From the NCBI GenBank assembly GCA_964520695.1, contig CAZFNO010000001.1, positions 8,211 through 72,210 on the forward strand: 64,000 nt of DNA, in the 5' to 3' direction. This document shows, piece after piece, positions 1 to 41,866 of the stretch (positions are counted from its first letter, which is position 1; every line of letters starts with the position of its first letter). The DNA comes from an uncultured Gammaproteobacteria bacterium (GTDB taxonomy: Bacteria; Patescibacteriota; Microgenomatia; Levybacterales; UBA12049). Made by a program: the position numbers and the translations under genes. Below the pieces are notes generated by a model that was given only the letters and a program-made list of their open reading frames with translations, had not been told where the DNA came from and did not search any database.

Positions 1-210
1 TTTTATTGTTCTTATTCCAAAAGGAACGCTGCACGGATTTATGGTAGTTTCAAATGAGCCGGCAGTTCTTCTTAATTTCCCAACAGCACTTTATAACCCG
101 CAGGACGAACTAAGAGTTCCATACAAAGAGGCGAATATTAAGGACTCGCAAGGAGTGCTTTTTAGTTGGGATACAATTAGGGCTCAATTCTCTCATCTTA
201 AAAGATAGTT

Positions 211-954
211 ATGGCAGTAAAGTCTTTATCTCTTATTATTCCTGCCTATAAGCAAGAAAAAACAATTACAAAAGATCTTAGGCAGCTTGATAAAGTACTA
301 TCAGCCCAAAGAATAGATTATGAATTAATTGTTGTAGTTGACGGATTTTTGGATAAAACTTTTGAGAATGCAAAGAAATTAAAGTTTAGCAGTTTAATTG
401 TTGAGGGATACAGGGAAAATAAAGGAAAGGGGTTTGCGATAAAACACGGAGTAAAAATAGCAAAAGGAGATATTATTGGATTTATTGATTCAGGAATGGA
501 CTTAGATCCCCAAGTGATCTCTATAATGCTTGATACTATGGAATGGAAAAAGGCAGATATTGTTATTGGTTCAAAGCTCCATCCTGATTCAAAAGTTAAT
601 TATCCCCCAATAAGAAAAGTTCTTTCCTGGGGATACAGGACAATTGTTAGAATTCTTTTTGATTTCAACATAAAAGATACACAGGTAGGCCTTAAGATAT
701 TCAGAAAAAAAGTTGCAAAAGACGTATTTCCAAGAATTATTATTAAGAATTTTGCATTTGATGTTGAGGTTTTGGCAGTTGCTAGGCTCTTGGGATACAA
801 AAAAATATATGAGTCACCGGTAAAATTAAGATTCAGAGCAGGGAGCATTACAAGTACGACTTTTCTTAAAACATCTTTCTGGATGCTTTGGGAAACTTTG
901 GCAGTTTTTTATAGAATGAATATTCTTAATTACTATAATAAAAAAAAGAAATAA
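211..954 (+). CDS. Family-2 glycosyltransferase (DPM1/GtrB-like catalytic domain, soluble)
   Basis: N-terminal 'LSLIIPAYKQE' strand, 'VVDGFLD' and 'DSGMDLDP' acidic motifs typical of the GT-A fold / GT2. Confidence 0.75.
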   Translation: MAVKSLSLIIPAYKQEKTITKDLRQLDKVLSAQRIDYELIVVVDGFLDKTFENAKKLKFSSLIVEGYRENKGKGFAIKHGVKIAKGDIIGFIDSGMDLDPQVISIMLDTMEWKKADIVIGSKLHPDSKVNYPPIRKVLSWGYRTIVRILFDFNIKDTQVGLKIFRKKVAKDVFPRIIIKNFAFDVEVLAVARLLGYKKIYESPVKLRFRAGSITSTTFLKTSFWMLWETLAVFYRMNILNYYNKKKK

Positions 955-992
955 GATGTAAGAGATAAGATATAAGAAAAAATACGTTAAAA

Positions 993-1019
993 AATTCATA
1001 TGTCATAAATCTTAAATCT
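993..1019 (+). promoter_or_regulatory. Conserved 27-nt upstream element, copy 1 (AATTCATATGTCATAAATCTTAAATCT)
   Basis: 25/27 identical to 24450..24476; ends 13 nt before the ATG of the ArnT-like gene. Confidence 0.5.
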
Positions 1020-1032
1020 AGTAAAATAAACA

Positions 1033-2352: not shown

Positions 2353-3437
2353 GGATACTTATTTTAAACTGGAGAGATATAAAAAACCCAAAATCAGGCG
2401 GGGCGGAAATTGTAACTTTGGAGCACGCCAAAGCCTGGGTAAAAAAAGGTCACAGCGTTACCTGGTTTACTTCATCATTTAAAAAAGCAAAAAGAAAAGA
2501 GTTTTTAAACGGAGTAAAAATTGTAAGATTTGGAAATTTTATATCCGTTTATTTATTTGCTCCTTTTTATTATTTTTTTTCTGGGAATAAATTTGATGTT
2601 GTAATAGACCAAATCCACGGCCTCCCCTTTTTTACTCCTCTTTATGTTAGGGTGAAAAAAATTGTACTTATCCATGAAGTGGCTGGCCCAATTTGGGATT
2701 ATATGTATCCGTTTCCGATTAATTATATTGGAAGATTAATTGAACCAATTTATTTTAAGATTTATAAGAATGTGAAATTCTGGACTCCCAGCAACTCAAC
2801 CATAAATGATCTAGTAAGATACGGAATTAATCGCAAAAACTGCATAAAAATACACTGCGGAATAAATAATAAGGTTTTGGAAAAGTTACCAGTGAAAGAA
2901 AAAGACCCAACTTTTATATTTGTTAGCAGGATCGTGAGGATGAAAGGAATTGAAGACGTTATTAAATCTTTTTTTATAATTAATGACTCTATTAAAACTT
3001 CCTCGCTTTGGATCGTGGGAGAAGGAGAAAAAAAATATATTGATTATTTAAAAAAACGATTTAATCTTGATTCTCGAAAAAATGTGAAATTTTTTGGATT
3101 TGTTTCTGATCAAGAAAAGCTAAACCTAATGAGAAAAGCGCATTTACTTTTGCATGCATCTATTAAGGAAGGATGGGGGCTCGTTATAATTGAGGCAGCA
3201 AGCCAGGCAACACCCTCAGTCGTATATAATGTTTCCGGATTAAATGAATCAGTTGTGAGTAATAAAACTGGAATAGTTCTAAAAAAAGATACACCTGAAG
3301 AAATGGCCCTGTCCTCGATGCAGTTACTTAAAAATCCCAAGATTTATCAAAAATATCAAAAATACTCCCTAGATTTAGCAAAAAGTTTGACCTGGAATAA
3401 AGCTACTAAACAAAGTCTTAAATTAATAGAAACATAA
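2349..3437 (+). CDS. Family-4 (GT-B) glycosyltransferase
   Basis: C-terminal 'EGWGLVIIEAASQATP' E-x7-E motif region; N-terminal 'ILILNWRD..GGAE' typical of GT4. Confidence 0.75.
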   Translation: MRILILNWRDIKNPKSGGAEIVTLEHAKAWVKKGHSVTWFTSSFKKAKRKEFLNGVKIVRFGNFISVYLFAPFYYFFSGNKFDVVIDQIHGLPFFTPLYVRVKKIVLIHEVAGPIWDYMYPFPINYIGRLIEPIYFKIYKNVKFWTPSNSTINDLVRYGINRKNCIKIHCGINNKVLEKLPVKEKDPTFIFVSRIVRMKGIEDVIKSFFIINDSIKTSSLWIVGEGEKKYIDYLKKRFNLDSRKNVKFFGFVSDQEKLNLMRKAHLLLHASIKEGWGLVIIEAASQATPSVVYNVSGLNESVVSNKTGIVLKKDTPEEMALSSMQLLKNPKIYQKYQKYSLDLAKSLTWNKATKQSLKLIET

Positions 3438-3438
3438 G

Positions 3439-4278
3439 ATGAAAATATTTATAACTGGTGCGAATGGTCAATTAGGAAAAACTTTCTCTGAAATATATCC
3501 TAAAAAAAATTTATATCTTGGGACTAAAGAAAAATTGGATGTGACACGCAAAAGTCAGGTTTTAACGCAAATAAAAAAAAATAAACCTGAAATAATCTTG
3601 CATTTTGCTTCAATGACCAGGGGAGACGAATGTGCCAGAAATCCCCAAAAAGCATATGAGATAAACGTTAATGGCACAAAAAATATAGTTGAAGCCGCAA
3701 AAAAAAACAATTCAGTTTTATTATTTATAAGCACTAATGAGGTGTTTGATGGTAAGAAAAAAACCCCGTATACAGAAAGAGACAAACCTAATCCTATGAC
3801 GGTTATAGGTATGACAAAATACAATGCGGAAAAAATTATCCAGGAAAAACTAAGCGAGTACTTTATTATAAGAACGTCCTGGCTATATAGTAAATGGAGT
3901 CAGAACTTTCTTCAAACAGTTATTGCTAGGGCTAGGAAAAATAAAAAAATAAAGCTGGTCACGGATGAAATTAGTTCACCCACATATTCTTTGGATCTTT
4001 CATTAGCAATTAAAAAAATAATTTTAACGAAAAAATACGGAGTTTATCATCTTGTTAATACAGGGAAGGCTTCTAGGCTGGAGTTTGCACAAAAAGCATT
4101 CGAATTATCGGGCATTAATGGTACAGAAATAATTCCGATTAAACTCAGGAATTTTAATAGGCGATCAAAACCACCACTTTATACCCCTTTGGATAACAAG
4201 AAAGCAGGACAGTTGGGTATATCATTTCCTAGGTGGGAAAATGCATTAGAAGGATTTATTTCATCAGTTAGTATTTAA
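3439..4278 (+). CDS. dTDP-4-dehydrorhamnose reductase-like SDR (RmlD family)
   Basis: 'MKIFITGANGQLG' Rossmann motif, 'YxxxK' at 'TKYNAEK', length and layout match RmlD/RfbD. Confidence 0.6.
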   Translation: MKIFITGANGQLGKTFSEIYPKKNLYLGTKEKLDVTRKSQVLTQIKKNKPEIILHFASMTRGDECARNPQKAYEINVNGTKNIVEAAKKNNSVLLFISTNEVFDGKKKTPYTERDKPNPMTVIGMTKYNAEKIIQEKLSEYFIIRTSWLYSKWSQNFLQTVIARARKNKKIKLVTDEISSPTYSLDLSLAIKKIILTKKYGVYHLVNTGKASRLEFAQKAFELSGINGTEIIPIKLRNFNRRSKPPLYTPLDNKKAGQLGISFPRWENALEGFISSVSI

Positions 4279-4281
4279 CCT

Positions 4282-5124
4282 ATGAAAAAAACAAAACTCG
4301 TATCAATAGTTATTCCAACCAGAAATTCGGCAGATGTTTTAGAAAAGTGCTTAAAAAGTATTAAATCTCAGGTATATTCTAATGTTGAGATAATTATTGC
4401 GGATGGAAGGTCCAAGGACAATGTTGCTGATCTAGCAAAAAAATACAATTGCCGCTTTTATTTGTTTAATCCTAAAATAAAAGAGGTTTTTTTTGACGCG
4501 CCGCATAAAATAAACTTTGGTGTTTCAAAGGCAAAAGGAAAATATATTTATTGGTTAGATGCCGATATGGAAGTAACAAAAAACTTAATAAAAGAGGCGG
4601 TAGAAGTTTGTGAAAGGAAGGGTGCTGGATCAATAATTATTCCGGAAGAGTCATTTGGTGAGGGTATTTGGGCCAAAGCTAAGCAACTTGAGCGGCGATG
4701 TTACTGGGGAGATAATACGATTGAATCTCCGCGCTTCTTTATTAAAGAGGTTTGGGATGAGGTGGGAGGATTTGATTTAAGTCTTGGTGCTGGAGCAAAT
4801 GATTGGGATCTTCATTTGAAAGTGAAAGAGCATGGATATAAAGTTATGCGGACTAAGGGTTTGGTACTCCATAATGAAGGCAAACTGACATTAACCAAAC
4901 TATTTAAAAAAAGATATATGTATGGAAGGGAGGTCGTTAAGTATATTGAAAAAAGGCCAAAAGCAAGTTTTACCAGTTTTTTTCCAATAAGACGAGCGTA
5001 TATTAAAAACTGGAGAATGTTTGTTAAGTCTCCGATTGTTTCGATTGCATTTATTATCATGAGAACAGCAGAATACACTGGAGGTTTTTTAGGAATTGTT
5101 GCAAGTTATTTTCAAAAAAAGTAG
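4282..5124 (+). CDS. Family-2 glycosyltransferase
   Basis: 'VSIVIPTRNSADVLEKCLKSIKSQ' GT2 N-terminal signature, 'LDADM' DxD-like motif. Confidence 0.8.
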   Translation: MKKTKLVSIVIPTRNSADVLEKCLKSIKSQVYSNVEIIIADGRSKDNVADLAKKYNCRFYLFNPKIKEVFFDAPHKINFGVSKAKGKYIYWLDADMEVTKNLIKEAVEVCERKGAGSIIIPEESFGEGIWAKAKQLERRCYWGDNTIESPRFFIKEVWDEVGGFDLSLGAGANDWDLHLKVKEHGYKVMRTKGLVLHNEGKLTLTKLFKKRYMYGREVVKYIEKRPKASFTSFFPIRRAYIKNWRMFVKSPIVSIAFIIMRTAEYTGGFLGIVASYFQKK

Positions 5125-5134
5125 TTATTTAAAA

Positions 5135-6151
5135 ATGAAATCCAAAAATAAAAAACAATCGTCAATTTCTGTAATTATTCCAACTTATAATTCATCCCGC
5201 ACGATTGGTAAATGTCTTAAAAGTATAATAAATCAGGACTATCCAAAAAGTCTGATTGAAATAATTGTGGTTGATGGTGGATCGTCTGATAGCACTATTG
5301 ATATTGTAAAGAAGTTTGGAGCCAAAATAATAAAAGTTTCAAGTAGTCTTCAGAATGCCGAATATAACAAAGGAATAGGGATAAATTCGGCAAGAAATGA
5401 ACTATTACTGATGCTTGATCATGATAATATTCTGCCTCATAAAATGTGGTTACAAAAAATGGTTGAGCCATTGCAGGAAAACAAAAATGTTGTAGGTGTT
5501 GAGCCACTTCGTTTTCATTACGACAAAAACATGAAATTTATGGATAGATATTTTGCACTTCTTGGAGGTACTGATCCTGTTGCTTATTATCTTGGAAAAA
5601 ACTCTCACCTTTCATATATCTTTGACAAATATAATTTGTTGGGAAATGCAATTGATAAAGGAGAATATTATCTTGTTAGATTTTTTCCGAATAAGCTTCC
5701 TGCGATTGGTGGTAATGGAGCTTTAGTTAAAAGAAACATGATACTGCAATTCGCCAAATCGGATCCTGATAATTTTTTTCATATCGATGTTCACATGGAC
5801 CTTGTAAATAGGGGATTTAATACATACGCAATTGTTAAAGACACTATTATACATATGACGCATAGTCAATTTTTCTCTTTTTTGCGAAGAAGGATGTATT
5901 TTGTTGAGAAATATTATTATGAGGAATCCAAAAAGCGTCGTTATAGTATATATAATCCCAAAGAGGATAATTTAAAACTTCTGTATTATATTTTAATTTC
6001 TCTTACCATAATTAAGCCTCTTTTTGATTCTTTGAGAGGGTATCTTAAGTTAAGAGATAGTGCGTGGTTTGTACATCCTTTTATGTGTTTTTGTATGGTT
6101 TTTGCTTATGGAATACCTGTTATAAAATCAAGCATTTTTAAAAAAAGATGA
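5135..6151 (+). CDS. Family-2 glycosyltransferase
   Basis: 'ISVIIPTYNSSRTIGKCLKSIINQ', 'VVDGGSSD', 'MLDHDN'; start moved to the ATG at 5135 (ORF-track start 5096 overlaps the upstream gene). Confidence 0.8.
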   Translation: MKSKNKKQSSISVIIPTYNSSRTIGKCLKSIINQDYPKSLIEIIVVDGGSSDSTIDIVKKFGAKIIKVSSSLQNAEYNKGIGINSARNELLLMLDHDNILPHKMWLQKMVEPLQENKNVVGVEPLRFHYDKNMKFMDRYFALLGGTDPVAYYLGKNSHLSYIFDKYNLLGNAIDKGEYYLVRFFPNKLPAIGGNGALVKRNMILQFAKSDPDNFFHIDVHMDLVNRGFNTYAIVKDTIIHMTHSQFFSFLRRRMYFVEKYYYEESKKRRYSIYNPKEDNLKLLYYILISLTIIKPLFDSLRGYLKLRDSAWFVHPFMCFCMVFAYGIPVIKSSIFKKR

Positions 6152-7077
6152 ATATAAAAAATAAAAAAGTTTTAGTTACGGGCATAGATGGATTTGTAGG
6201 CAGTCATTTAAGCAATGCGTTAAATAGATTGGGGGCAGATGTTATTGGAATTTCAAAAATCAGAAAAGGAAAAGGCATATATAATATAGATATTGTTAAT
6301 TTTAAAAAGCTCAGTTATGTTTTTAAAAAAGAGAAAATAGAAATATGTTTTCATCTTGCCGGAGTCTCTCTTGTAGAGGAAGGACAAAAAAATCCTTACG
6401 ACACATTTAAAATTAATATTCTTGGAGCCCTTAATATTTTAGAGCTAACAAAAATCTATAATTTAGATCGAGTTATAGTAGCTTCTACAGCTCACGTATA
6501 TGGCGATAATATCCCTCCTTTTAAGGAAACTTACTATCCCCGTCCCTCAAGGCCATATGAAACATCAAAGGCAACAGTAGATTTAATCTCGCAAAGCTAT
6601 GCAGACACCTTCGATCTACCGGTACTGATTCCAAGATTTGTAAATATTTATGGACCAGGAGACGTTCATCAAACGCGACTTATACCAAAAACAATAAAAT
6701 CCGTACTTAAAGGAGAAAATCCTAAAATATGGGGAGGAGAAATAGTTAGGGACTATCTTTTTGTTGATGACGCAATTGATGGATATATAAAACTAGCAAC
6801 TGTTGATTTGAATAAAATTGGCAGGAACAGAATATTTAATTTTGGAAGCGGAAATAAGATATCAGTAATATCAATAGTGGAAAAAACAATTAAATTAAGC
6901 GGTAAACGATTAAAAATACGAAAGGAAAAGAATCAGCGGGAGCTTGAGATTGACCAACAATATGTATCTTTTGAGAAAGCAGATAAATTATTAGGATGGA
7001 GGCCTAAAGTAGGAATTGGTGAGGGTTTAAAGAAGACATTTAAATGGGCAAAAGAAATAGATACGGAAATAATTTAA
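6148..7077 (+). CDS. NAD-dependent sugar epimerase/dehydratase (extended SDR)
   Basis: 'VLVTGIDGFVGSHL' glycine-rich NAD motif, catalytic 'YETSK' (YxxxK). Confidence 0.7.
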   Translation: MNIKNKKVLVTGIDGFVGSHLSNALNRLGADVIGISKIRKGKGIYNIDIVNFKKLSYVFKKEKIEICFHLAGVSLVEEGQKNPYDTFKINILGALNILELTKIYNLDRVIVASTAHVYGDNIPPFKETYYPRPSRPYETSKATVDLISQSYADTFDLPVLIPRFVNIYGPGDVHQTRLIPKTIKSVLKGENPKIWGGEIVRDYLFVDDAIDGYIKLATVDLNKIGRNRIFNFGSGNKISVISIVEKTIKLSGKRLKIRKEKNQRELEIDQQYVSFEKADKLLGWRPKVGIGEGLKKTFKWAKEIDTEII

Positions 7078-7129
7078 AATCTAATTCTTCTTGTCAATAA
7101 TATTTCAATTTGCTATTCTCTTTAAGCAA

Positions 7130-8107
7130 ATGAGAAGAAATAAGACAGCCTTGGTTTTCGGCGCGGGTGGATTTATAGGTGGCCACTTAGTTAAAAAATT
7201 AAAAAAAGATGGATATTATGTTTTCGGAGTTGATCTTAAAAAACCTGAATACAGTGAAACTTTGGCAGACAAATTTATCCTTGGAGATCTGACAGAACAG
7301 AAATTTGTTAAAAAAGTTTTTAATAAAAAATATGACGAAGTTTACCAATTAGCAGCAGACATGGGAGGGGCAGGGTATATATTTACAGGCGACAATGATG
7401 CAAAAATTATGTATAGCTCCGCACTCATTAACTTAAATGTGCTTAATGAAATGGTAAATTCAAAATCAAAGAAAATTTTTTACTCCTCCTCTGCGTGTAT
7501 TTATCCTGAATACAATCAGCTAAATCCTGAAAATCCTAAGACGTCTGAGGACTCGGCCTATCCTGCCGAGCCTGATAGCGAATACGGCTGGGAAAAACTG
7601 TTTTCTGAGCGAATGTTTCTTGCTTATCACAGAAACTTTGGTTTAGAGGTAAGAATAGCCAGATTCCATAACATATTTGGACCTGAAGGAGTATGGAAAG
7701 GTGGACGGGAAAAATCGCCCGCAGCAATTTGCAGAAAAATTGCAGAAGCAAAAGAAGGAGGACAAATTGAGATATGGGGTGACGGTAAACAGACAAGATC
7801 ATATCTTTATATAGATGAGTGTCTTGAGGGAGTTAGAAGGTTTATGGACAGTAACTTTGCAGGCCCTGTGAATATAGGATCTGAAGAAATGGTAGCAATA
7901 AATGATTTAGCAAAAATGGTAATGAAAATAGCAAATAAGAAAGTGAAGCTAAAGCATGTAAAAGGTCCCCTTGGAGTACGAGGGCGTAAATCCGATAACG
8001 CTTTGATAAGAAAAAAGTTGGGTTGGGAGCCTAAAATTCCTCTTATTGACGGAATGACCAAGACCTATATTTGGATTGAGGCTCAAGTTAATAAGTCAGC
8101 AAGATAA
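7130..8107 (+). CDS. NAD-dependent sugar epimerase/dehydratase (extended SDR)
   Basis: 'ALVFGAGGFIGGHLV', catalytic 'YGWEK'; ATG at 7130 preferred over the ORF-track TTG at 7091. Confidence 0.7.
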   Translation: MRRNKTALVFGAGGFIGGHLVKKLKKDGYYVFGVDLKKPEYSETLADKFILGDLTEQKFVKKVFNKKYDEVYQLAADMGGAGYIFTGDNDAKIMYSSALINLNVLNEMVNSKSKKIFYSSSACIYPEYNQLNPENPKTSEDSAYPAEPDSEYGWEKLFSERMFLAYHRNFGLEVRIARFHNIFGPEGVWKGGREKSPAAICRKIAEAKEGGQIEIWGDGKQTRSYLYIDECLEGVRRFMDSNFAGPVNIGSEEMVAINDLAKMVMKIANKKVKLKHVKGPLGVRGRKSDNALIRKKLGWEPKIPLIDGMTKTYIWIEAQVNKSAR

Positions 8108-8116: not shown

Positions 8117-8932
8117 ATGATAAAAAATTTAGTTATAGGATCAGAGGGGTTTATTGGCAAACCGTTCTGTAACTTTTTGGAACAAAAAGGAGAAGAAGTA
8201 ATCCGATTTGATATTAAGAAAAATAAAAAAGAAGACGCTAGATTCTTTGAATTTAATTTTAAGAATATTGACAGAATTTATTTTCTTGCTTGGGACGTTG
8301 GCGGATCAAAGTATTTGTACGATTCGAAGCTCCAGATGAGGCAACTAAAATGGAACTTGGAGCTTATGACTAATGTTTTTGCGCATATTGAACGCCAAAA
8401 AAAACCATTTCTTTTTGTTTCAAGTCAGCTGGTTGAAGAATCCGATACTGTTTATGGAGTAACAAAAGCGTTGGGTGAGGTTTGGACAAAAGAATTAGGA
8501 GGGATCTCAGTGAGGGTCTGGAACGCATATGGAGTTATGGAGGAAAAAAATATAAAAAGTCATGTTATTTCCGATTTTATATATCAAGCGCTTGAGAAAA
8601 GAGTGATTAAAACGATGACCGATGGGACTGAATGGCGTCAGTTCACCCACATTAATGATTTATCACGAGCCTTTTATATGGCGCTAAATTCTAAGGAACT
8701 AAGAAGAAGCGTTTATGATGCAAGCAGTTATGAATGGGTAAGAATAATTGATATTGCAGAAATAATTTGCGAGCTAACAGGTGCAAAACTGATTCTAGGC
8801 AAAGTAAAAGGACATGATCCGTCTCCAGCGGTTAATGTTGGGAGAATTCCCGGATGGCTTCCCCAAGTCTCTTTGCATGAGGGAATAAAAGCAATGGTTG
8901 AGAAGGCACGCAAAAAACTTATTAATGACTAA
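8117..8932 (+). CDS. SDR-family sugar epimerase/reductase-like protein
   Basis: 'LVIGSEGFIGKPF' nucleotide-binding motif, 'YGVTKALGE' YxxxK. Confidence 0.6.
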   Translation: MIKNLVIGSEGFIGKPFCNFLEQKGEEVIRFDIKKNKKEDARFFEFNFKNIDRIYFLAWDVGGSKYLYDSKLQMRQLKWNLELMTNVFAHIERQKKPFLFVSSQLVEESDTVYGVTKALGEVWTKELGGISVRVWNAYGVMEEKNIKSHVISDFIYQALEKRVIKTMTDGTEWRQFTHINDLSRAFYMALNSKELRRSVYDASSYEWVRIIDIAEIICELTGAKLILGKVKGHDPSPAVNVGRIPGWLPQVSLHEGIKAMVEKARKKLIND

Positions 8933-10792: not shown

Positions 10793-10806
10793 AAAAAAAT
10801 AATCCA

Positions 10807-11514: not shown

Positions 11515-11515
11515 A

Positions 11516-12121: not shown

Positions 12122-12127
12122 TTTATT

Positions 12128-14353: not shown

Positions 14354-14366
14354 TTTAGCATTAAGT

Positions 14367-25672: not shown

Positions 25673-25796
25673 GCTATCAAATAGATTTCCCTTATCACAC
25701 CTTGACCAATTTTTATTTTAAAACTATAACACTACGTCGTATCAAAGTTTTTTGAAAATACCGTGAGGGTTATACTTTTAGTTAAATTAGTAGAAG

Positions 25797-26396: not shown

Positions 26397-26434
26397 AACT
26401 AAAACTATTATCTATTTATTAATTACTTTTTAAA

Positions 26435-27634: not shown

Positions 27635-27661
27635 CTTTCCACCCTTGGGGTGGACTAGTGT

Positions 27662-28216: not shown

Positions 28217-28221
28217 ATTTT

Positions 28222-32291: not shown

Positions 32292-32309
32292 CTAGACTAA
32301 AATAAAATA

Positions 32310-33782: not shown

Positions 33783-34954
33783 AAATTTTAATGCTCTCAT
33801 CTTATCTTCCTTATCCTCTTTGGGATGGAGGGAGAATAAGACTTTTTAATATTTTAAAGTTTCTCTCAAAAAGTCATGACGTTACCTTAATCTGCGAAAA
33901 AAGACCGAGTCAATCAAAAAACGATGAAGAGGAAGTTAGGAAAATATGCAAAAAGCTAATTGTTGTAGATAGGCCTCCTGTTTGGTCAATTCAAAATATT
34001 TCTAAATCTTTTTTTTCGCTGGATTCTCTTCTTGTAACTTCCCATACAAATAAAATAATAAAAGAAGCGATACGAAAAGAACTTTCGGAAAGCGATTTTG
34101 ATCTAATACACGTTGAGACATTTTATGTTATGCAAAACCTGCCAAAGGTCAACATTCCAATAGTTTTGATTGAACATAATATAGAGTATGAAATATACGG
34201 CCGTTATTTAAAAAAATCAAAAGCATTTATTAAACCTTTTCTTCTTCCGGATATTTTAAAGCTTAAAAGAAGAGAGAGGCAGTCCTGGAAAAGGGCAGAT
34301 AAAGTAGTGGCAGTTTCTCTCCATGATCGGAAAGTAATAGGCGATTCAGAACTTGTACCAAACGGAGTTGACGTAGATAAATTTAGTTTTACAAAACCGC
34401 AGATTAGAAAAAATAAAAAAGTTCTATTCATCGGCGATTTTAAGTGGGTGCAAAATAGAGACAGTACAGTTTTTATAATAAAAAATATCTGGCCCAGAAT
34501 TATCTATGAAAATAAAAATAAGTTGGATTTAAAACTTTGGGTGGTGGGAAAAAATATTCCCGAAAAAATCAAAAAACTCTTGGATTCTTCAATAATCTTT
34601 GATGAGGATGCACCTAACGCTACGGAGAAAATATTTGAGGCATCTGATGTACTTCTTGCACCGATCAGAATTGGAGGAGGGAGCAGTTTTAAGATTTTGG
34701 AAGCGATGTCAGCGGGCGTTCCGGTTGTAACTTCAAAGCTTGGAAATGAGGGAATAGGAGCTTTGGATAATGCCCAAATTATGGTTTGTGACCTACCGGA
34801 AGAATATGTGGGAGCTGTAACTAAGCTTCTTAACGATAATTATCTTTATGAGAAAATAGCAAGAAATGCAAGGGAATTTGTAGAGAAAAACTTTGATTGG
34901 AGGATAATTGTTAAAAAGCTGGATGAAGTATATAAATCGGCTGTATCAAGATGA
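33779..34954 (+). CDS. Family-4 glycosyltransferase
   Basis: 'GGGSSFKILEAMSAGVPVV' EX7E motif. Confidence 0.75.
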   Translation: MKILMLSSYLPYPLWDGGRIRLFNILKFLSKSHDVTLICEKRPSQSKNDEEEVRKICKKLIVVDRPPVWSIQNISKSFFSLDSLLVTSHTNKIIKEAIRKELSESDFDLIHVETFYVMQNLPKVNIPIVLIEHNIEYEIYGRYLKKSKAFIKPFLLPDILKLKRRERQSWKRADKVVAVSLHDRKVIGDSELVPNGVDVDKFSFTKPQIRKNKKVLFIGDFKWVQNRDSTVFIIKNIWPRIIYENKNKLDLKLWVVGKNIPEKIKKLLDSSIIFDEDAPNATEKIFEASDVLLAPIRIGGGSSFKILEAMSAGVPVVTSKLGNEGIGALDNAQIMVCDLPEEYVGAVTKLLNDNYLYEKIARNAREFVEKNFDWRIIVKKLDEVYKSAVSR

Positions 34955-35823
34955 AAAAACTTACAATTTCAATAGTTAATTTTAACAGCGGAGATCATCT
35001 TTTGAAATGCTTAGAGTCTTTGGATAATGCTAAAAAAGAACTTGATTTTGACGTTTATGTTGTTGATAACGCATCAACGGACGGGAGTTTAGAAGACGCC
35101 CAAAAAAAATATCCAGAGTTTAACTTTATTAAAAATACAAAAAATTTGGGCTTTGGCTCGGCGCATAATCTTGTATTGAAAAAAGCAAAAACCCCCTATC
35201 TCCTAACACTCAACCCTGATACCAGCATAAAGGAAGGAACGTTATCTTATATGGTAGATTTTATGGATAATAATTTAGATGTTGGGGCTGCGACTTGTAG
35301 AATAGAAAAAGAAGACGGAACGCTTGACTTGGCTTCTCATAGAGGATTTCCTACCCTTAAATCATCCTTCTATTATTTCTTTTTAAAAAATAACAAATAT
35401 TACCACATGACTGATAAAAATATGAAAGAGATACACGGTGTGGATTCAATAGTGGGTGCTTTTATGATGCTTCGACGTTCTGTCCTTGAGAAGGTTGGTT
35501 ATTTTGATGAAGACTACTTTTTGTATGGGGAGGACATAGATTTATGTTTCAGAATAAAAGAGGAAGGATATAAGGTGATGTATACACCCGAAGTTAAAAT
35601 TATTCATATCAAAGGAGCATCATCCGGCATAAAAAGTCACAGCAGGGGAAAATCTGTAGCTGATTCAATTACAAAAAAATTGGCTATGGACAGTTTTTAC
35701 GATTCAATGAAGATTTTTTACAAAAAACACTACGCCCAAAAATATCCATCACTTGTTAATTTATTGGTTTTTTTGGCAATTGATCTAAAAAAAATAATGT
35801 CAAAAGGGAAAAAAATAGTTTAA
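34951..35823 (+). CDS. Family-2 glycosyltransferase
   Basis: 'LTISIVNFNSGDHLLKCLESL', 'VVDNASTD', 'LNPDT', 'EDIDLC'. Confidence 0.8.
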   Translation: MKKLTISIVNFNSGDHLLKCLESLDNAKKELDFDVYVVDNASTDGSLEDAQKKYPEFNFIKNTKNLGFGSAHNLVLKKAKTPYLLTLNPDTSIKEGTLSYMVDFMDNNLDVGAATCRIEKEDGTLDLASHRGFPTLKSSFYYFFLKNNKYYHMTDKNMKEIHGVDSIVGAFMMLRRSVLEKVGYFDEDYFLYGEDIDLCFRIKEEGYKVMYTPEVKIIHIKGASSGIKSHSRGKSVADSITKKLAMDSFYDSMKIFYKKHYAQKYPSLVNLLVFLAIDLKKIMSKGKKIV

Positions 35824-35824
35824 T

Positions 35825-36967
35825 ATGATTATTGGAATTGACGCTCGGCTTTGGAGGGAGACCGGGGTTGGAAGATACATAAGAAATTTGGTTATTAATC
35901 TTGAAAAAATCGATAAGAAAAACGACTACGTTTTATTTGTTTTGGATTCTGATAAAGAACAAATCTCAGAAAAAATTAAAAATGAAAAGTGGAGGATTGT
36001 TCCAACAAAAATTAAATGGCACTCGATTTCAGAACAGTTAAGATTTCCAAAAATAATTAAAAAAGAAAATGTTGATCTAATGCATTTTCCTTATCAAATA
36101 AACGTTCCGATTCTTTACAATAAACCATACATAATAACAATCCACGATTTAGTAAGACACTATTTTATAACAGGAAAAGCTTCAACTAACGCTTTATGGC
36201 TATATGGATTTAAAATGATTGGCTACAAAACCATGATAAATTTAGCTGCAAAAAGAGCTAATAAGATAATTGCAGTTTCCAATTCTACAAAAAGAGACGT
36301 TATGAGCAGGTTGGGAATTAATGATAAAAAAATAGAAATAATATATGAAGCGGCCGATGATTTTTTCGCCAAAAACGGATCGACTGGCCGAAACTCAGAT
36401 AAAGAATTAGATATTAAAAACTATTTTTTATACATAGGAAATATTTATCCTCATAAAAATACAGAAAGACTTGTTGAAGCGTTTAAAATATTTTCCAAAG
36501 AAAACGATACAAAGCTGATTTTTGTAGGGAAAAAAGACTATTTTTATAAAAATCTTGAAAAAAAATTAGAGAAATTAATTCGTGAAGGGAGAATTATTAT
36601 TTATTATGATATATCAGATGATAAGCTTTACTCACTTTACAAAAATGCAATTTGCCTTGTTCGGCCGTCTCTCATGGAGGGATTTAGCCTTCCGCCTCTT
36701 GAAGCGCTGTCTTGCAAGTGTTTAGTTTTGGCATCAAATATCAGCACTCACAAAGAAATTTTTGGTGATTCAATCATTTATTTTGATCCTTACAATACCC
36801 GTGACATTATTGATAAAATGGGCTACGTTTATTCTCTTGATAAAAAAACAAGAGAGAGATATATAGAAAAAGGTTTAAAACTTGCTCAAAGTTTCTCTTG
36901 GGAGCAAACTGCAAGGCAAACATTAAAAGTTTATGAAGACTGCATTGGTATACGACAGAATAAATAA
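35825..36967 (+). CDS. Family-4 glycosyltransferase
   Basis: 'MIIGIDARLWRETGVGRY', 'MEGFSLPPLEALSCKCLVL'. Confidence 0.8.
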   Translation: MIIGIDARLWRETGVGRYIRNLVINLEKIDKKNDYVLFVLDSDKEQISEKIKNEKWRIVPTKIKWHSISEQLRFPKIIKKENVDLMHFPYQINVPILYNKPYIITIHDLVRHYFITGKASTNALWLYGFKMIGYKTMINLAAKRANKIIAVSNSTKRDVMSRLGINDKKIEIIYEAADDFFAKNGSTGRNSDKELDIKNYFLYIGNIYPHKNTERLVEAFKIFSKENDTKLIFVGKKDYFYKNLEKKLEKLIREGRIIIYYDISDDKLYSLYKNAICLVRPSLMEGFSLPPLEALSCKCLVLASNISTHKEIFGDSIIYFDPYNTRDIIDKMGYVYSLDKKTRERYIEKGLKLAQSFSWEQTARQTLKVYEDCIGIRQNK

Positions 36968-38021
36968 ATGGGGAGGAGCAGAAAGAGTTCTTCTAGCGCT
37001 ACATAAAATTTTTCCCGAAGCACCAGTATTCACATCTGTGCACAGCAGGCAAAATACACCCTGGTCAAAAGTCTTTAATGTAAGAACTTCAAGTCTTCAA
37101 AAAATCAAATTTTTCCAAGACAACAATCATTTTATCCCGCTTCTTATGCCCAGTGCTTTTGAAACATTTTCTTTTGATAAGTATGATTTGGTTATTTCAA
37201 TAAGCAGCGAGGCGGCAAAAGGAATAATTACCAAGCCCGGCACTCTTCACATTTGTTATTGTCTTACCCCAACTCGTTATTTGTGGAGCGGGCACAAAGA
37301 TTATTTTTCAAATAAATACCTAAGAACGATTGCTCATCCGGCAATAAATTATTTGAGGCATTGGGACAAAATTTCATCCAGAAGGCCAGATCATTTTATT
37401 TCAATTTCAAAAGAAGTTCAGAAAAGAGTAAAAAAATATTATGGAATTGACTCAGATGTAATTTTTCCTCCGGTTATGTTGGAGAAAAAGTCAAAAAGGA
37501 GAGAAAACTTAGGCAATCACTTTCTTATGGTTTCTAGGATGTCCCGGTTTTCATATTATAAAAAAGTAGACTTAGTTATTGACGCGTTTAATAAAAGTAA
37601 ATTACCTTTAAAAATTGTAGGTCATGGCCCTATGATACGAAGGTTTAAAAATAAAGCAAGCGGAAACATTGATTTTTTGGGAGAATTGAGAGATAAAGAA
37701 TTAATTACTCAATATGAAAAATGCAGGGCGCTGGTTTTTCCTGGAGTTGAAGATTTTGGACTGGTGATGGCCGAAGCCCAGACTTTTGGGAAACCCGTTA
37801 TAGCATATAGAGCGGGTGGCGCTTTAGAAATTATAGTTGAGGGTAAAACCGGAGAGTTTTTTGACAGGCAGAGTGCTGATTCACTAGCATCAGCATTGAA
37901 AAGGTTTGATGAAAAAAGATATAATATGACTGAAATAGAAAGAAATGCGAAGAGATTTACTTTTGAGAATTTCAAAACAAATTTTGAGAAATTCTTGAAA
38001 GATAAAATAAATCAAATATGA
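36933..38021 (+). CDS. Family-4 glycosyltransferase
   Basis: 'KWGGAERV', 'EDFGLVMAEAQTFGKPVIA'. Confidence 0.75.
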   Translation: MKTALVYDRINKWGGAERVLLALHKIFPEAPVFTSVHSRQNTPWSKVFNVRTSSLQKIKFFQDNNHFIPLLMPSAFETFSFDKYDLVISISSEAAKGIITKPGTLHICYCLTPTRYLWSGHKDYFSNKYLRTIAHPAINYLRHWDKISSRRPDHFISISKEVQKRVKKYYGIDSDVIFPPVMLEKKSKRRENLGNHFLMVSRMSRFSYYKKVDLVIDAFNKSKLPLKIVGHGPMIRRFKNKASGNIDFLGELRDKELITQYEKCRALVFPGVEDFGLVMAEAQTFGKPVIAYRAGGALEIIVEGKTGEFFDRQSADSLASALKRFDEKRYNMTEIERNAKRFTFENFKTNFEKFLKDKINQI

Positions 38022-39100
38022 AGGTTGTAATTTTTGCAGGAGGTGTTGGAACAAGGCTCTGGCCGCTGTCAAGAAAACACACTCCAAAGCAGTTTGAAAA
38101 AATAGTAGGAGATCGGTCAACTCTTCAGCTAGCAGTAGAAAGACTTTACCCTGCATTTAAACCGTCGGATATCTACGTTTCAACAGGAGAAAATTATAAA
38201 AAAATAATTCAAAAACAACTTCCCGAGATACCTAGGGAAAATTTTATTTTCGAACCGGAACAAAGAGATGTTGGTCCAGCAGTTGCAACAGCTTTGGCAA
38301 TTGTTGGAAAAAATTCACCCCAGGAGCCGGTTGCAATTGTTTGGAGCGATCATTTTGTAAAAAAAGAAAGAAGATTTAGGGAAGTACTTTCCTTTTCTGA
38401 AAAACTTGTTTCCAAAAATCCAGACCGCTTAGTATTCATAGGCCAGCGGGCTCGATTTGCGAATCAAAATCTAGGTTGGCTTGAATTCGGTGATCAAGTA
38501 GACTCAATCAGGGGAACAAAGGTCTTTTCCTTTAAGCGTTTGATTTATAGACCAACTTTAGGGGAGGCACAAAAATATTTAGAGAGCGATAGATATGCCT
38601 GGAATCCCGGATATTTCGTAACAACTCCGAAATTTATCCTTGACTCCTATAAAAAACTTGCTCCTTCCATATGGAGGGGAGTGATTAAAATACAGGCTTC
38701 CTTTGGAAAAGACAATTTCAACAGTGTTATGAGGCAAGAGTATCCAAAGCTTGAAAAAATAAGCTTTGACAACGCAATTCTTGAGAAACTTCCAACAGAT
38801 AATGTTTTAGTAATTGCGGCAGATCTTGGATGGAGTGATGTGGGGGCCTGGGAAGCTCTTAAGGAGGCGCTTCAGATTAAAAGCACTGAGAATGTTGAAA
38901 GAGGAAAAGTTCTTCTAACTGATTCAAAAGACAATCTTGTGTTTAACTTTACGGACCAGCTTGCGGTGGGAATTGATCTTGAAGGGATGATTGTAATTAA
39001 CACAGACGACGTGGTTCTTATCTGTCATAAGAATTCAATACCAAAGGTTAAAAAGTTGGTAGAAAGTCTGGCTGGCACTCCCCACGAACATCTTACCTAA
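38018..39100 (+). CDS. Mannose-1-phosphate guanylyltransferase-like sugar nucleotidyltransferase
   Basis: 'VIFAGGVGTRLWPLSRKHTPKQF' signature of GMP/ManC-type NTP-transferases. Confidence 0.75.
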   Translation: MKVVIFAGGVGTRLWPLSRKHTPKQFEKIVGDRSTLQLAVERLYPAFKPSDIYVSTGENYKKIIQKQLPEIPRENFIFEPEQRDVGPAVATALAIVGKNSPQEPVAIVWSDHFVKKERRFREVLSFSEKLVSKNPDRLVFIGQRARFANQNLGWLEFGDQVDSIRGTKVFSFKRLIYRPTLGEAQKYLESDRYAWNPGYFVTTPKFILDSYKKLAPSIWRGVIKIQASFGKDNFNSVMRQEYPKLEKISFDNAILEKLPTDNVLVIAADLGWSDVGAWEALKEALQIKSTENVERGKVLLTDSKDNLVFNFTDQLAVGIDLEGMIVINTDDVVLICHKNSIPKVKKLVESLAGTPHEHLT

Positions 39101-39151
39101 ATGATTTTATTTTAAAAATACTTTAGGATTCGTGGGGTTAATTTTAAAATT

Positions 39152-39817
39152 ATGCCGTATAAAGAAGTTAAAAAGGAAATATATTACGAGATCATGAAAA
39201 GAGTGTTTGATATTATCTGCTCCTCTATTCTTTTGATACTTTTCATGCCGGTAATAATTTTGGTTTCGATTGCAATAAAGTTTGACTCTAAAGGACCGAT
39301 TTTGGCGGATACTCCAGAGCGTGTTGGGAAAAACGGTAAGCTTTTTAAGATGTATAAATTCCGCTCAATGATTGAAAATGCCCATGAGCTCCTCCGGGAA
39401 AATCCAAAGTTTGCCAAACTTTATCAGGACTATAAAAAGGGAAGCTATAAGTTAAGGGATGATCCAAGAATAACTAAAGTGGGACGTTTTATAAGGAAGC
39501 ACTCTTTGGATGAAGTACCTCAGTTTTTTAACGTACTAAAGGGAGAGATGAGCCTTGTAGGACCTAGGGCTTACTACCCTGATGAACTTAGAGAACAGCA
39601 GAAAAGATACCCTAGGACTAAAGACGATGTAGAGATTGTATTATCGGTAAAACCGGGTGTTACGGGATACTGGCAGGTTTCCGGAAGATCAGAAATAAAT
39701 TTTGATAAGAGGATAAAAATGGATGCAGAATATGTGAGAAAAAGATCACTAATTTATGATTTGATTATTGTTCTAAAAAGTCCCTGGGCAATGATCTCCG
39801 GAAAAGGCGCTTTGTAA
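39152..39817 (+). CDS. Polyprenyl-phosphate sugar phosphotransferase (bacterial sugar transferase, WbaP/PglC-like)
   Basis: N-terminal TM 'ICSSILLILFMPVIILVSIAI', 'KFRSM', 'DEVPQFFNVLKGEMSLVGPR'. Confidence 0.85.
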   Translation: MPYKEVKKEIYYEIMKRVFDIICSSILLILFMPVIILVSIAIKFDSKGPILADTPERVGKNGKLFKMYKFRSMIENAHELLRENPKFAKLYQDYKKGSYKLRDDPRITKVGRFIRKHSLDEVPQFFNVLKGEMSLVGPRAYYPDELREQQKRYPRTKDDVEIVLSVKPGVTGYWQVSGRSEINFDKRIKMDAEYVRKRSLIYDLIIVLKSPWAMISGKGAL

Positions 39818-39853
39818 TTGACACGCCCATTAGCTTACTTGTATCATATAGCA

Positions 39854-41866
39854 ATGGAAGGATTTAAGAAGATTGAGCTTGGCTCATCTTCTCCCGCAAC
39901 CAACACTACTTCTGATACTTCGCAGCCAGTAATCCAAACAGTCCTCCCGCAAAGATCAAGGCGAGGAAGTGAGATGGGTGGAGTTTCAAGGTTTGACAAA
40001 CTCGCTTCATTAGTCAGACTCCGAAACAAAAAAGTCGGAGTCGGACTTTTGATATTTGCCATTATTTTCTTGGTATTAATTTTAATTCCCTCATTTCTTG
40101 TTTTCTCCTCAGCAAAAAAAACATATGCACAAGTTAATTTAACTCTTGCTGCCCTTAAAAATCAGGATATAGAGCGGGCAGGCAAAGAGCTTAAAAATAC
40201 AAGAGAATCTCTTGAAGATACCAAAAATAAGCTGAATTTGCTGTTTATACTAAGATTCATCCCAGGTCCAAACATTTATTACAATGATGCAAGACACCTT
40301 GTCAATGCCGGATTCCACGGTCTTGACGCAGCTGATATCTTTGTGGAGTCTGTTGAGCCCTATGCAGATGTTTTAGGCCTTAAAGGTCAGGGAAGTTTTA
40401 CCGGAGGAACAGCCGAGCAAAGGATTCAAACAGCCGTTGCTACCATGGGCAAAGTTACGCCTAAGATAGATGAAATAGCAAAATCGCTTACTTTTGCCAA
40501 AGAAGAAATAGAAGAACTAAATTCAAATCACTATCCCGGATTTATCATGGGGGGTAAAATAAAAAATACGGTAATTAGGACAAGAACCCTGGCAAATGAC
40601 GGAGTTACATTTATTGAAGAAGCAAAACCTCTTATTAAGGTCCTTCCGGAACTTTTGGGGGAGAAAGAACCTAAAAAATATCTGGTAATTTTTCAAAATG
40701 ATAAAGAACTTAGGCCAACTGGAGGATTTATTACAGCGTATGCAATATTTAACGTTGACAAGGGAGTAATAACAGCTGAGAAGTCTGAAGATATATATTC
40801 ACTTGATGACACGATTTCAGGAAAGGAAAAAGCCCCTGAGCCAATAAGAAAATATCTTGCCAATGTCCCGCTTTATAATCTAAGAGACAGCAATCTATCG
40901 CCGGATTTCCAAAAATCTATGGAAGACTTTCGGGAGATTTATGATAAGGCAAGAGGGGGAGAGGATGTTGACGGAATTGTAGCTCTAGACACCCACGCTT
41001 TAGTTTCGGTCATGAATGTATTAGGAGATATTGAAGTTAACGGCCAGACGTTTAGCAGTACTAAAACAGATGAGCGGTGCGACTGTCCTCAAGTTATATA
41101 TGAGCTTTTAGAGTTTGCCGGAATTAGGGTGCAGTATATAAGGCCTGACAGGAAAAGCATTATTGGGGATCTCATGCTCTCGATTATGAAAAAGGCGCTT
41201 TCTTCCTCTCCTGGAAAGTATTGGGGTCCGCTGATCCAGACTGGATTTTCGGAAATTTCAAAAAAACACGTACTTTTTAGCCTTGAAAATAAAGATGCCC
41301 AAAAAGGACTTTCCGCAGTTAACGCGGCAGGAGAAATAAGAGATTTTAAGGGAGATTATTTTCACCTTAATGAAGCAAATTTTGGAGGAAGTAAATCGAA
41401 TTTATTTGTAGACCAGAACGTTACTCATGAGTACAGTATGTCAAAAGACGGAATTATAACCAAAACTGTTACAGTTAATTATAAAAATACTCATAAACCC
41501 TCAAATTGTAATTTAGAAGCTGAGAATGCCCTGTGTCTTAACGCACCATGGAGGAATTGGTTCCGAGTTTATGTTCCAAAGGGAAGTAAGTTAATAGACT
41601 CATCAGGATCTGAGGTTAAGATGTCAACATATGAAGAGTTTGGTAAAACAGTATATGAAGGGTTTTTAACAGTAAGGCCTCTGGGAATAGCAAGGCTCAC
41701 CATCAGTTATTCTCTTCCTTTCAAGCTCGAAAAAGGTTCTGACCTGCCGCTGATGATTCAAAAACAGCCGGGAACAGAAGGAGATGAATATACCATTAGA
41801 GTAGGTGACGTGGAGGTAGAAAAGTTTGTACTTGACAGGGATGTGACTTTATACTTAGACTTATAA
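39854..41866 (+). CDS. DUF4012-like extracytoplasmic protein with N-terminal TM anchor
   Basis: 'IFQNDKELRPTGGFITAYA' matches the DUF4012 core; ATG at 39854 preferred over the TTG at 39818. Confidence 0.55.
   Translation: MEGFKKIELGSSSPATNTTSDTSQPVIQTVLPQRSRRGSEMGGVSRFDKLASLVRLRNKKVGVGLLIFAIIFLVLILIPSFLVFSSAKKTYAQVNLTLAALKNQDIERAGKELKNTRESLEDTKNKLNLLFILRFIPGPNIYYNDARHLVNAGFHGLDAADIFVESVEPYADVLGLKGQGSFTGGTAEQRIQTAVATMGKVTPKIDEIAKSLTFAKEEIEELNSNHYPGFIMGGKIKNTVIRTRTLANDGVTFIEEAKPLIKVLPELLGEKEPKKYLVIFQNDKELRPTGGFITAYAIFNVDKGVITAEKSEDIYSLDDTISGKEKAPEPIRKYLANVPLYNLRDSNLSPDFQKSMEDFREIYDKARGGEDVDGIVALDTHALVSVMNVLGDIEVNGQTFSSTKTDERCDCPQVIYELLEFAGIRVQYIRPDRKSIIGDLMLSIMKKALSSSPGKYWGPLIQTGFSEISKKHVLFSLENKDAQKGLSAVNAAGEIRDFKGDYFHLNEANFGGSKSNLFVDQNVTHEYSMSKDGIITKTVTVNYKNTHKPSNCNLEAENALCLNAPWRNWFRVYVPKGSKLIDSSGSEVKMSTYEEFGKTVYEGFLTVRPLGIARLTISYSLPFKLEKGSDLPLMIQKQPGTEGDEYTIRVGDVEVEKFVLDRDVTLYLDL

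Follow-up and report, generated by a model that had tools for sequence, protein, structure and literature searches.

The closest described relatives of the locus treated here are the Wzx/Wzy loci for O-antigen and for Gram-positive capsule or exopolysaccharide (EPS). We analyzed a 64,000-nucleotide (nt) stretch of contig CAZFNO010000001.1 (the window), of which bases 1-41866 make up most of an envelope-glycan supercluster on the chromosome, which spans at least 44 kb; the host is a member of Candidatus Levybacteria (Microgenomates, Candidate Phyla Radiation, or CPR). With Wzx/Wzy loci the supercluster shares a Bac_transf primer, many glycosyltransferases (GTs) of families GT2 and GT4, RmlD, RmlC-like and ManC proteins, acetyl- and methyltransferases, a MOP/Wzx protein, a Wzy_C/WaaL-like domain, and a cassette-like variation in its middle part. 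It differs from them in that Wzz or another polysaccharide copolymerase (PCP), a tyrosine kinase, and an LCP ligase were not seen here. A single protein joins the Wzy_C-like domain to a GT-C domain, the seven GT-C-type proteins are far above the usual number, and much of the locus is conserved over several candidate phyla rather than being serotype-variable.

Two other comparisons are relevant. The GtrA/GtrB/Gtr, CsbB/GtcA/YfhO, and ArnC/ArnEF/ArnT systems resemble the part of the locus in which a GtrB/ArnC-like gene (start at 24484) stands beside genes for the GT-C-type proteins that we call G, H (C-terminal half), and I. Unlike those systems, no GtrA- or ArnE/F-type flippase was detected, and a conserved membrane protein of 72 amino acids (aa) is found at that position. 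DUF4012, a domain enriched in CPR and Gram-positive bacteria, has been noted in the EPS/capsular polysaccharide (CPS) cluster of Bifidobacterium longum 105-A (PMC6744442). That cluster likewise joins a membrane-anchored DUF4012 protein with a priming transferase, whereas here the DUF4012 gene invariably closes a conserved core, before recO and glyS. The logic of the locus matches that of Wzx/Wzy loci combined with extracytoplasmic glycosylation of the Gtr/YfhO/ArnT type. What is unusual is the GT-C count, the conserved WaaL-GT-C fusion, the modules of a GT-C-like protein with a partner resembling carbohydrate-binding modules (CBMs), and a core of ~20 kb found across several candidate phyla. 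Literature searches on CPR, GT-C, and O-antigen ligase turned up no published description of such a cluster.

Taken together, our data make it probable that the region is a supercluster of a core and a variable arm, which serves a lipid-linked pathway of the Wzx/Wzy type with heavy GT-C decoration outside the membrane. A sequence-only reading had taken bases 1-41866 to be a surface-glycan island dominated by GT-C enzymes, with no recognizable Wzx, Wzz, or ABC exporter. We agree that the locus serves a surface or envelope glycan and that GT-C-type enzymes are unusually abundant in it, but the cluster is cut by the left window edge and 1-41866 is an incomplete locus.

The evidence for a flippase came from beyond that edge. 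Using the first complete gene of the window (211-954), we found a Logan contig (L001) whose bases 2479-3605 equal window bases 1-1127 at 100% identity and which reaches 2478 nt upstream of window base 1. Three of its genes precede the first GT2 gene and encode a partial polytopic protein, a 426-aa protein, and an RmlC-like cupin. The 426-aa gene (window -1601 to -321) has its stop 321 nt before window base 1. By Kyte-Doolittle hydropathy, a rough method, the protein has ~12 hydrophobic segments, which fits the 12 to 14 transmembrane (TM) helices and 400 to 500 aa expected of MOP/Wzx proteins. An identical protein (P0162) lies on an NCBI contig of 73,336 nt, a length equal to that of the contig listed for H (P0001) and C (P0121). 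Nearly all of the 120 P0162 homologs listed (48 to 81% identity) carry PF01943 or PF13440 (Polysacc_synt/Polysacc_synt_3), among them the 81% and 61% identical ones and about 100 others, and several are annotated as “O-antigen/teichoic acid export membrane protein” or as “oligosaccharide flippase.” A 58% identical ortholog on ENA contig k139_481270 has strong precomputed matches to both families (E at most 1e-5). On that contig, Wzx, GT2, PMT_2, and GT4 genes stand in the same order (GT2 66%, PMT_2 62%, and GT4 42% identical), and the H ortholog follows the Wzx ortholog on the same strand at a distance of ~32 kb, a spacing that matches the window genome. Searches of PDB sequences with the candidate and its family profile gave no meaningful match. 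Judged by homology, we regard the 426-aa gene as a candidate flippase of the MOP/Wzx family.

The RmlC-like cupin (L001 2132-2686) overlaps the window start and matches dTDP_sugar_isom (E 1.5e-11), with 39.7 bits for TIGR01221, below its cutoff of 155.75. Because Wzx-type and RmlC-like genes sit directly upstream on the same contig, the statements that the locus has neither a Wzx flippase nor RmlC were window-edge artifacts; a gene missing from a locus that touches a window edge should not be taken as absent. The rest of what the sequence-only reading said about export agrees with our scans. Among window open reading frames (ORFs) of at least 150 aa, there was no Pfam or NCBIfam match to Wzx, Wzz, or an ABC exporter, including ABC ATPase and ABC-2 permease genes for glycan export, and no Wzz was found in L001. 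None of the seven proteins called GT-C turned out to be a hidden Wzx or ABC exporter in the hidden Markov model (HMM) scan.

Before the Wzx gene, bases 1-876 of L001 encode a polytopic protein of at least 291 aa with ~7 hydrophobic segments and no Pfam match. On a related contig (L083), more GT-C-type genes (MptA_B family, a weak YfhO match, and PMT_2) lie upstream of Wzx. Because a further membrane-protein gene precedes Wzx on L001 and GT-C-type genes do so on L083, the supercluster extends well past the window.

We scanned one genome per GTDB species, which gave 224 relatives of H, and analyzed 80 of the species-level loci, each with at most 10 kb of flanking sequence to either side. The genes from G to RecO were found in 44 to 80 of the 80 loci, in the same order and with median identities of 38 to 75%, in Levy-, Roizman-, and Gottesmanbacteria; homologs of G itself were in 40/80. 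The order is G, GtrB-like GT2, 72-aa protein, half-GT4, GT4, acetyltransferase, GT2, H, I, GT4, GT2, GT4, GT4, ManC, PglC, DUF4012, RecO. From this synteny, bases 22345-41866 appear to be a vertically inherited core, and the region is, on present sequence data, best described as a chromosomal supercluster that joins a lineage-wide core to a cassette-like variable arm. The core genes, called here and below from Pfam and NCBIfam scans of ORFs of at least 150 aa (E up to 0.01), are as follows; TM counts for polytopic proteins are rough hydropathy estimates (8 to 22 segments over nine proteins).

22345-24405, +: G, 686 aa, AftD-N/MmpA/DUF6541-like (DUF6541 E 3.2e-4; MmpA E 9.3e-7); first core gene
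24484-25410, +: GtrB/ArnC/PgfS-like polyprenol-P GT, a GT2 domain with two C-terminal TM helices (PF00535 E 2.4e-32; ArnC NF007986 171 bits and PgfS 145 bits, both under equivalog cutoffs)
25454-25672, +: 72-aa membrane protein, ~3 TM, no family match
25797-26396, +: half-size GT4 (N-terminal half), 199 aa, PF13439 match at the C-terminus
26435-27634, +: GT4 (PF00534 E 7.4e-38), in 78/80 loci
27662-28216, +: hexapeptide acetyltransferase, WcaF-like (PF00132 E 2.9e-16; NF007797 101.6 bits, below cutoff)
28222-29088, +: GT2 (PF00535 E 8.8e-29)
29085-32291, +: H, 1068 aa, ~22 TM, predicted WaaL/Wzy_C-like plus GT-C fusion
32310-33782, +: I, 490 aa, PMT_2 GT-C (PF13231 21.1 bits, below cutoff; an ortholog has a strong precomputed PF13231 match, E at most 1e-5), in 74/80 loci
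33779-34954 (GT4), 34951-35823 (GT2), 35825-36967 (GT4), and 36933-38021 (GT4), all +: Pfam matches, in 59-78/80 loci
38018-39100, +: ManC-like mannose-1-phosphate guanylyltransferase without a phosphomannose isomerase domain (PF00483 and ManC_GMP_beta-helix; TIGR01479 231 bits, below the cutoff of 373)
39152-39817, +: small PglC-type phosphoglycosyltransferase, the primer (PF02397 E 4.1e-62; TIGR03025 256 bits, catalytic domain only; ortholog median identity 75%)
39818-41866, +: DUF4012 protein of 682 aa; a single TM helix at the N-terminus, with a large portion outside the cytoplasm (PF13196 E 3.8e-26)

The protein H has a family of >1300 homologs of ~1060 aa across Microgenomates. We modeled it from 26 homologs (predicted local distance difference test [pLDDT] 75.8). 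The top structural match of the N-terminal half was WaaL ligase (PDB 7tpj/7tpg), and the GT-C matches of the model were Pmt4 (16.8), ALG12 (16.3), AglB (15.4), STT3B (15.3), AftA (14.7), ArnT (13.5), and AftD (13.2); Foldseek agreed with these matches. Residues ~1-550 are WaaL/Wzy_C-like with a beta-rich insert at 287-425, and residues ~556-1068 are PMT/ArnT-like GT-C, with D593-D594 invariant in the family and placed after the first helix of the GT-C domain. Wzy_C was matched by 18 of the 26 family members; the signature region of H (residues about 450-475) reads GSGYGSVSLAVDNNYLRILGE.GLLG, and its D461 is Asp in all 26 aligned homologs. Neither H nor its family profile had a meaningful match among PDB sequences. 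From the model, H is predicted to be a WaaL/Wzy-like domain fused to a GT-C domain. Compared with WaaL (7tpj/7tpg), PglL, and Wzy, it has in addition the beta-rich insert of ~140 residues and the C-terminal GT-C domain of ~500 residues. The setting differs from that of WaaL as well, in that a Levybacteria host is not expected to have lipopolysaccharide or an outer membrane (PMC6744442).

Two small core genes are conserved in a similar manner. By tblastn, the 72-aa protein was present in 49/80 loci at 50 to 65% identity, usually 4 to 51 nt from the GtrB-like gene or directly after G, a position that invites the idea, by analogy, of a small subunit of a lipid-sugar flippase. Homologs of the half-size GT4 occurred in 62/80 loci, and each related locus that was mapped has an ORF of 174 to 190 aa in the corresponding place. 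The protein stops where the C-terminal Rossmann domain would start. We rejected a pseudogene, since the half-size ORF is kept at the same position in related loci, and its conservation indicates that 25797-26396 is a half-enzyme that has been retained as such.

To the left of the core lies the variable arm, which runs from before the window start to 22322. Its order is Wzx, RmlC-like, GT2, PMT_2 GT-C, and GT4. After these come deoxy-sugar short-chain dehydrogenases/reductases (SDRs), enzymes for methyl and acetyl transfer, an esterase, and a duplicated pair of modules, each with a GT-C-like protein and a CBM-like membrane partner. The features within the window are given below.

1-208, +: 3' end of the RmlC-like cupin (184 aa, start 346 nt upstream; last 69 codons in the window)
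211-954, +: GT2, 247 aa (PF00535 E 3.2e-17), 66% identical to the gene after Wzx in a related genome
1033-2352, +: A, PMT_2 GT-C, 439 aa, ~9 TM (PF13231 61.4 bits, above the cutoff of 26.1); 62% identical ortholog in L083
2349-3437, +: GT4 (PF00534 E 4.9e-32)
3439-4278, +: RmlD, dTDP-4-dehydrorhamnose reductase (TIGR01214 243.8 bits, above the cutoff of 224.05; PF04321 E 1.8e-71)
4282-5124, +: GT2 (PF00535 E 5.2e-23)
5096-6151, +: GT2 with one C-terminal TM helix (PF00535 E 1.7e-24)
6148-7077, +: SDR, NDP-hexose 4,6-dehydratase- or epimerase-like (PF01370 E 2.2e-49; top NCBIfam matches CDP- and dTDP-glucose 4,6-dehydratase, all below cutoff)
7091-8107, +: SDR, GDP-fucose synthase- or epimerase/reductase-like (PF01370 E 1.6e-42; NF047922 111 bits, below cutoff)
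8117-8932, +: divergent SDR (PF01370 E 8.3e-20)
8898-10163, +: GT4 (PF13692 and PF00534, E about 1e-14)
10160-10792 and 10807-11514, both +: two class I S-adenosylmethionine (SAM) methyltransferases (PF08241 E 2e-9 and 1.5e-10)
11501-12121, +: hexapeptide O-acetyltransferase, WbbJ/WcaF-like (PF00132 E 1.7e-18; NF007240 114 bits, below cutoff)
12128-14353, +: B, 741 aa, ~11 TM, putative AftD-N/MmpA-like GT-C superfamily; no Pfam match of its own
14367-15392, +: C, 341-aa membrane protein, partner of B; no Pfam match
15362-16348, -: SGNH/GDSL esterase with an N-terminal TM helix (PF13472 E 5.8e-20; acetylxylan-esterase-like, E 1e-10, below cutoff)
16386-18803, +: D, 805 aa, paralog of B (blastp versus B, E 7e-138, 37% identity)
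18800-19798, +: E, 332 aa, paralog of C (blastp versus C, E 6e-28, 29% identity)
19795-20460, +: SAM methyltransferase (PF08241 E 1.4e-19)
20463-22322, -: F, 619 aa, polytopic, in the B/D/G superfamily by hhalign; no Pfam match

Genes of this arm that were reached by the flanks were rare in the 80 loci: one locus had F, two had the methyltransferase at 19795, and 3 to 5 had D and E. Some segments are shared with other Levybacteria, namely, Wzx-GT2-PMT_2-GT4 (L083) and D-E-methyltransferase-F-G (a further related locus, L029).

The seven proteins that the sequence-only reading counted as GT-C correspond to A, B, D, F, G, H, and I, and their support is uneven. A, I, and the C-terminal half of H show a GT-C HMM match or fold, a polytopic topology, and an acidic motif in the first outer loop. 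For B, C, D, E, and F, Pfam and NCBIfam gave no or weak matches. B has the motifs GGDD after TM1 and FRNxxDKF, its C-terminal part forms an extracytoplasmic domain that is followed by a last TM helix, and its family with D comprises 1172 cluster representatives. Using hhalign, we found that the B/D family matches the G family with a probability of 100 (E 1.5e-41), while F matches the B/D alignment with a probability of 96.3 and the G alignment with 96.8 (555 columns). These alignments place B, D, F, and G in one superfamily. GT-C_AftD was matched by 1 of 49 B-family members (4.9e-4) and by 2 of 23 G orthologs (best, 3.6e-5), all below threshold; for GT-C_AftD or DUF6541, scans of these members yielded no more than one or two such matches. 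The B/D and G family profiles found no match among PDB sequences. The topology of B, D, F, and G and their GGDD/GD motif are consistent with GT-C, and their assignment to GT-C is plausible.

The nearest named proteins are the AftD N-terminal domain (PF11847), MmpA (NF053599), and DUF6541, to which the HMM similarity of B, D, F, and G is weak. The architecture agrees, with ~10 to 11 TM helices, an acidic motif that follows TM1, and a C-terminal domain outside the cytoplasm; a difference is that every match falls under the family threshold. MmpA is reported to resemble the N-terminal membrane part of AftD, and its transferase activity has not been demonstrated (PMC8698533). In contrast to the mycobacterial and corynebacterial GT-C machinery, B and D are each paired with a CBM-like membrane protein, and we found no description of such a pairing.

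In the AlphaFold model of C, which is a confident one (pLDDT 86.9), a TM helix at the N-terminus is followed by a beta-sandwich and then by five predicted helices, most of them membrane-spanning. Foldseek matched the beta-sandwich to CBM6, CBM36, and CBM35 (E 2e-5 to 1e-3). The C/E family has 41 members without a Pfam match, and E aligns with it. A homolog of C or E lies directly 3' of a B/D/G-type gene in 7/7 related loci that have one. Because these homologs always adjoin such a gene, we view B-C and D-E as two-gene modules, in which C and E may, from the model, be glycan-binding partners of the transferases. A GtrA-like flippase was considered for C and E and rejected, since the model matches through the CBM-like beta-sandwich alone and the TM part had no informative match.

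Nearly all of the region is coding, with ORFs of at least 150 aa occupying 98% of 1-41866; only 15362-16348 and 20463-22322 are on the - strand, and the remainder are on the + strand. Nearly every item of the earlier inventory was found again by Pfam or NCBIfam. There are six GT2 genes rather than five (starts at 211, 4282, 5096, 24484, 28222, and 34951), and the seven GT4 genes are six of full length (2349, 8898, 26435, 33779, 35825, and 36933) plus the 199-aa half at 25797. The priming transferase, DUF4012, and the GDP-mannose-forming enzyme are those at 39152, 39818, and 38018. The four SDRs include RmlD, together with those at 6148, 7091, and 8117. For decoration, there are three SAM methyltransferases (10160, 10807, and 19795), two hexapeptide acetyltransferases (11501 and 27662), and one SGNH esterase, each matched in Pfam. 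In the dTDP-L-rhamnose set, RmlD is above cutoff and the RmlC-like protein and the RmlB-like SDR (6148) are below threshold. No RmlA was found among window proteins and L001; the gene at 53278 encodes the N-terminal domain of GlmU, and the protein encoded at 38018 resembles ManC. A promoter and terminator scan of 14-27 kb gave counts equal to the shuffled expectation.

On the gene families, folds, synteny, and Wzx gene observed here, we infer substrates, an order of steps, and an acceptor as follows. The PglC-type enzyme would prime polyprenol phosphate. A lipid-linked oligosaccharide would then grow on the cytoplasmic face through the 12 Leloir GT2 and GT4 enzymes, with GDP-mannose (ManC) and 6-deoxyhexoses (RmlD, RmlC-like, and SDRs) as donors. 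The upstream Wzx-family protein would flip this oligosaccharide, and the WaaL/Wzy-like N-terminal domain of H would polymerize the glycan or ligate it to an envelope acceptor. GT-C domains (the C-terminal half of H, I, A, G, B, D, and F) would add sugars outside the membrane from polyprenol-P-monosaccharides made by the GtrB-like GT2. Finally, the glycan would be methylated, O-acetylated, and de-esterified, and the enzyme types for this decoration are present, as had been noted.

Several results weigh against this scheme. The Wzx candidate's own profile match is a weak one to MatE (E 0.011, Pfam), with none in NCBIfam, and its assignment is based on close homologs and topology. Wzy_C on H itself is below threshold (17.5 bits versus a cutoff of 31.7), and the invariant D461 occupies what we take to be the position of the catalytic His in WaaL-type ligases. 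Because of the sub-threshold match and this Asp, ligase or polymerase activity of H is not assured. All links of B, D, F, and G to known families (GT-C_AftD, DUF6541, and MmpA) are below threshold, and hhalign found no match between the PMT_2 family and either the B/D or the G family, so sequence gave no direct link to the classical GT-C families. There was no PF02706 or related match for Wzz/PCP, either in ORFs of 150 aa or longer (E up to 0.01) or in L001, an LCP-type ligase was not found in the locus, and no scanned ORF, the 72-aa protein included, matched a GtrA-like flippase (PF04138).

Four other explanations have to be set beside it. The sequence-only reading favored a pathway without flippase or exporter, in which GT-C enzymes build the polymer largely on the outer face from polyprenol-P-monosaccharides. 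The seven GT-C-type proteins, the GtrB-like donor synthase, and the lack of a Wzx, Wzz, or ABC match inside the window fit this view, and because a GtrB/ArnC-like polyprenol-P-sugar synthase (24484) is present, some outer-face glycosylation is plausible. “Largely” is an overstatement, because the PglC primer, 12 Leloir GTs, Wzx, and WaaL/Wzy-like domain follow the usual logic of cytoplasmic assembly, flipping, and transfer. There is only one clear polyprenol-P-sugar synthase, and the twelve Leloir GTs and the primer favor a cytoplasmic lipid-linked oligosaccharide. With a Wzx-family gene 321 nt upstream on the same contig, at a position kept in a related genome, the idea is largely refuted and we consider it very improbable. 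Pfam Wzy_C also includes the PglL/PilO O-oligosaccharyltransferases, and the core could instead serve general protein glycosylation, with the Wzy_C-like domain of H as an enzyme of that type and the PMT_2-type GT-C domains O-glycosylating surface proteins (pilins and S-layer proteins, for example). The fact that neither Wzz nor an LCP ligase was found would agree with this, as would the prominence of pilus-related families in CPR (PMC6744442). We think it unlikely, as the N-terminal half of H matches WaaL ligase best, DUF4012 has been noted in an EPS/CPS cluster (PMC6744442), and a complex polymer is the more usual product of a locus with at least 12 GTs, genes for methyl and acetyl modification, and duplicated GT-C modules.

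A third explanation concerns the boundary at about 22.3 kb, where conservation and GC content at third codon positions (GC3) shift sharply. Two juxtaposed pathways could meet there, the core making an essential wall-associated glycan exported by a route of its own and a strain-variable, Wzx-dependent cassette making an O-antigen- or capsule-like one, which would count against a single pathway. F and G are divergently oriented at this junction, and the middle genes vary between genomes in a cassette-like manner while the flanks are kept. Nevertheless, the ~44 kb examined, which takes in part of the 9.3 kb of the contig that lies beyond the window, holds one primer, one Wzx, and one Wzy_C-like domain, and the Wzx family is about as conserved (48 to 62% in most homologs) as H (52 to 60%), so we give this explanation little credence. 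Alternatively, the whole region could be a horizontally acquired genomic island, and composition is the main argument for it. GC ranges from 28 to 42% along the window and is 33.3% in 1-41866 versus 37.9% in 41867-64000; the drop of ~10% reported earlier is right in direction, with a size of 4.6 points overall and of 8.6 points only for 10160-22322, where GC reaches its minimum of 29.3%. GC3 is 0.260 in the variable left part, but it is 0.301 in the core and 0.302 in housekeeping genes. Many of the genes encode membrane proteins, which are AT-biased in composition. The right 19.5 kb is syntenic over about 80 species, and even the left arm has segments (Wzx-GT2-PMT_2-GT4 and D-E-methyltransferase-F-G) that recur in other Levybacteria. 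The window has no integrase or transposase Pfam match and no notable or flanking repeat, and the whole 64 kb has no tRNA or Rfam family at gathering score. “Island” therefore suits only the variable, lower-GC left ~22 kb, and for the region as a whole it is quite unlikely.

On the 3' side of the DUF4012 gene lie RecO and GlyRS (435 aa) and, a few kb on, a complete division and cell wall (dcw) cluster with MraW, FtsI, three Mur ligases, MurA, a GlmU N-terminal-domain protein, MraY, FtsW, MurG, FtsA, and FtsZ. RecO (41868-42404) has 178 aa and a truncated RecO_C match, and complete orthologs in two related loci have 178 to 179 aa. Between MurA and MraY, 53278-54027 encodes 249 aa whose only match is to the N-terminal half of GlmU, which is the uridyltransferase (model positions 3-242 of 452, 197.6 bits); the acetyltransferase half was not seen in the window. 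Two single-TM ORFs, 57248-57742 (164 aa, GC 27%) and 43968-44477 (169 aa, no Pfam match), occupy positions expected for FtsQ-like and MraZ/FtsL-like genes.

CPR bacteria, or Patescibacteria, are hard to culture, and the chemistry of their envelope is essentially unknown. A fixed-order core of ~20 kb, a few kb upstream of the dcw genes and common to Levy-, Roizman-, and Gottesmanbacteria, is a concrete candidate, open to testing, for the pathway behind the main glycan of their wall or surface, and it comes with a defined set of conserved, uncharacterized proteins: the WaaL-GT-C fusion, the DUF4012 protein, the half-GT4, and the 72-aa protein. Tentatively, and with doubt outweighing belief, we propose that H may be an undescribed bifunctional enzyme that transfers a lipid-PP-linked glycan to an envelope acceptor and also glycosylates it from a polyprenol-P-sugar, with the 72-aa protein as polyprenol-P-sugar flippase and the B-C and D-E modules for acceptor recognition as possible extras. 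If this is true, H would stand at the center of the assembly of a wall glycan that is found throughout the lineage, and is possibly essential, in these CPR bacteria.

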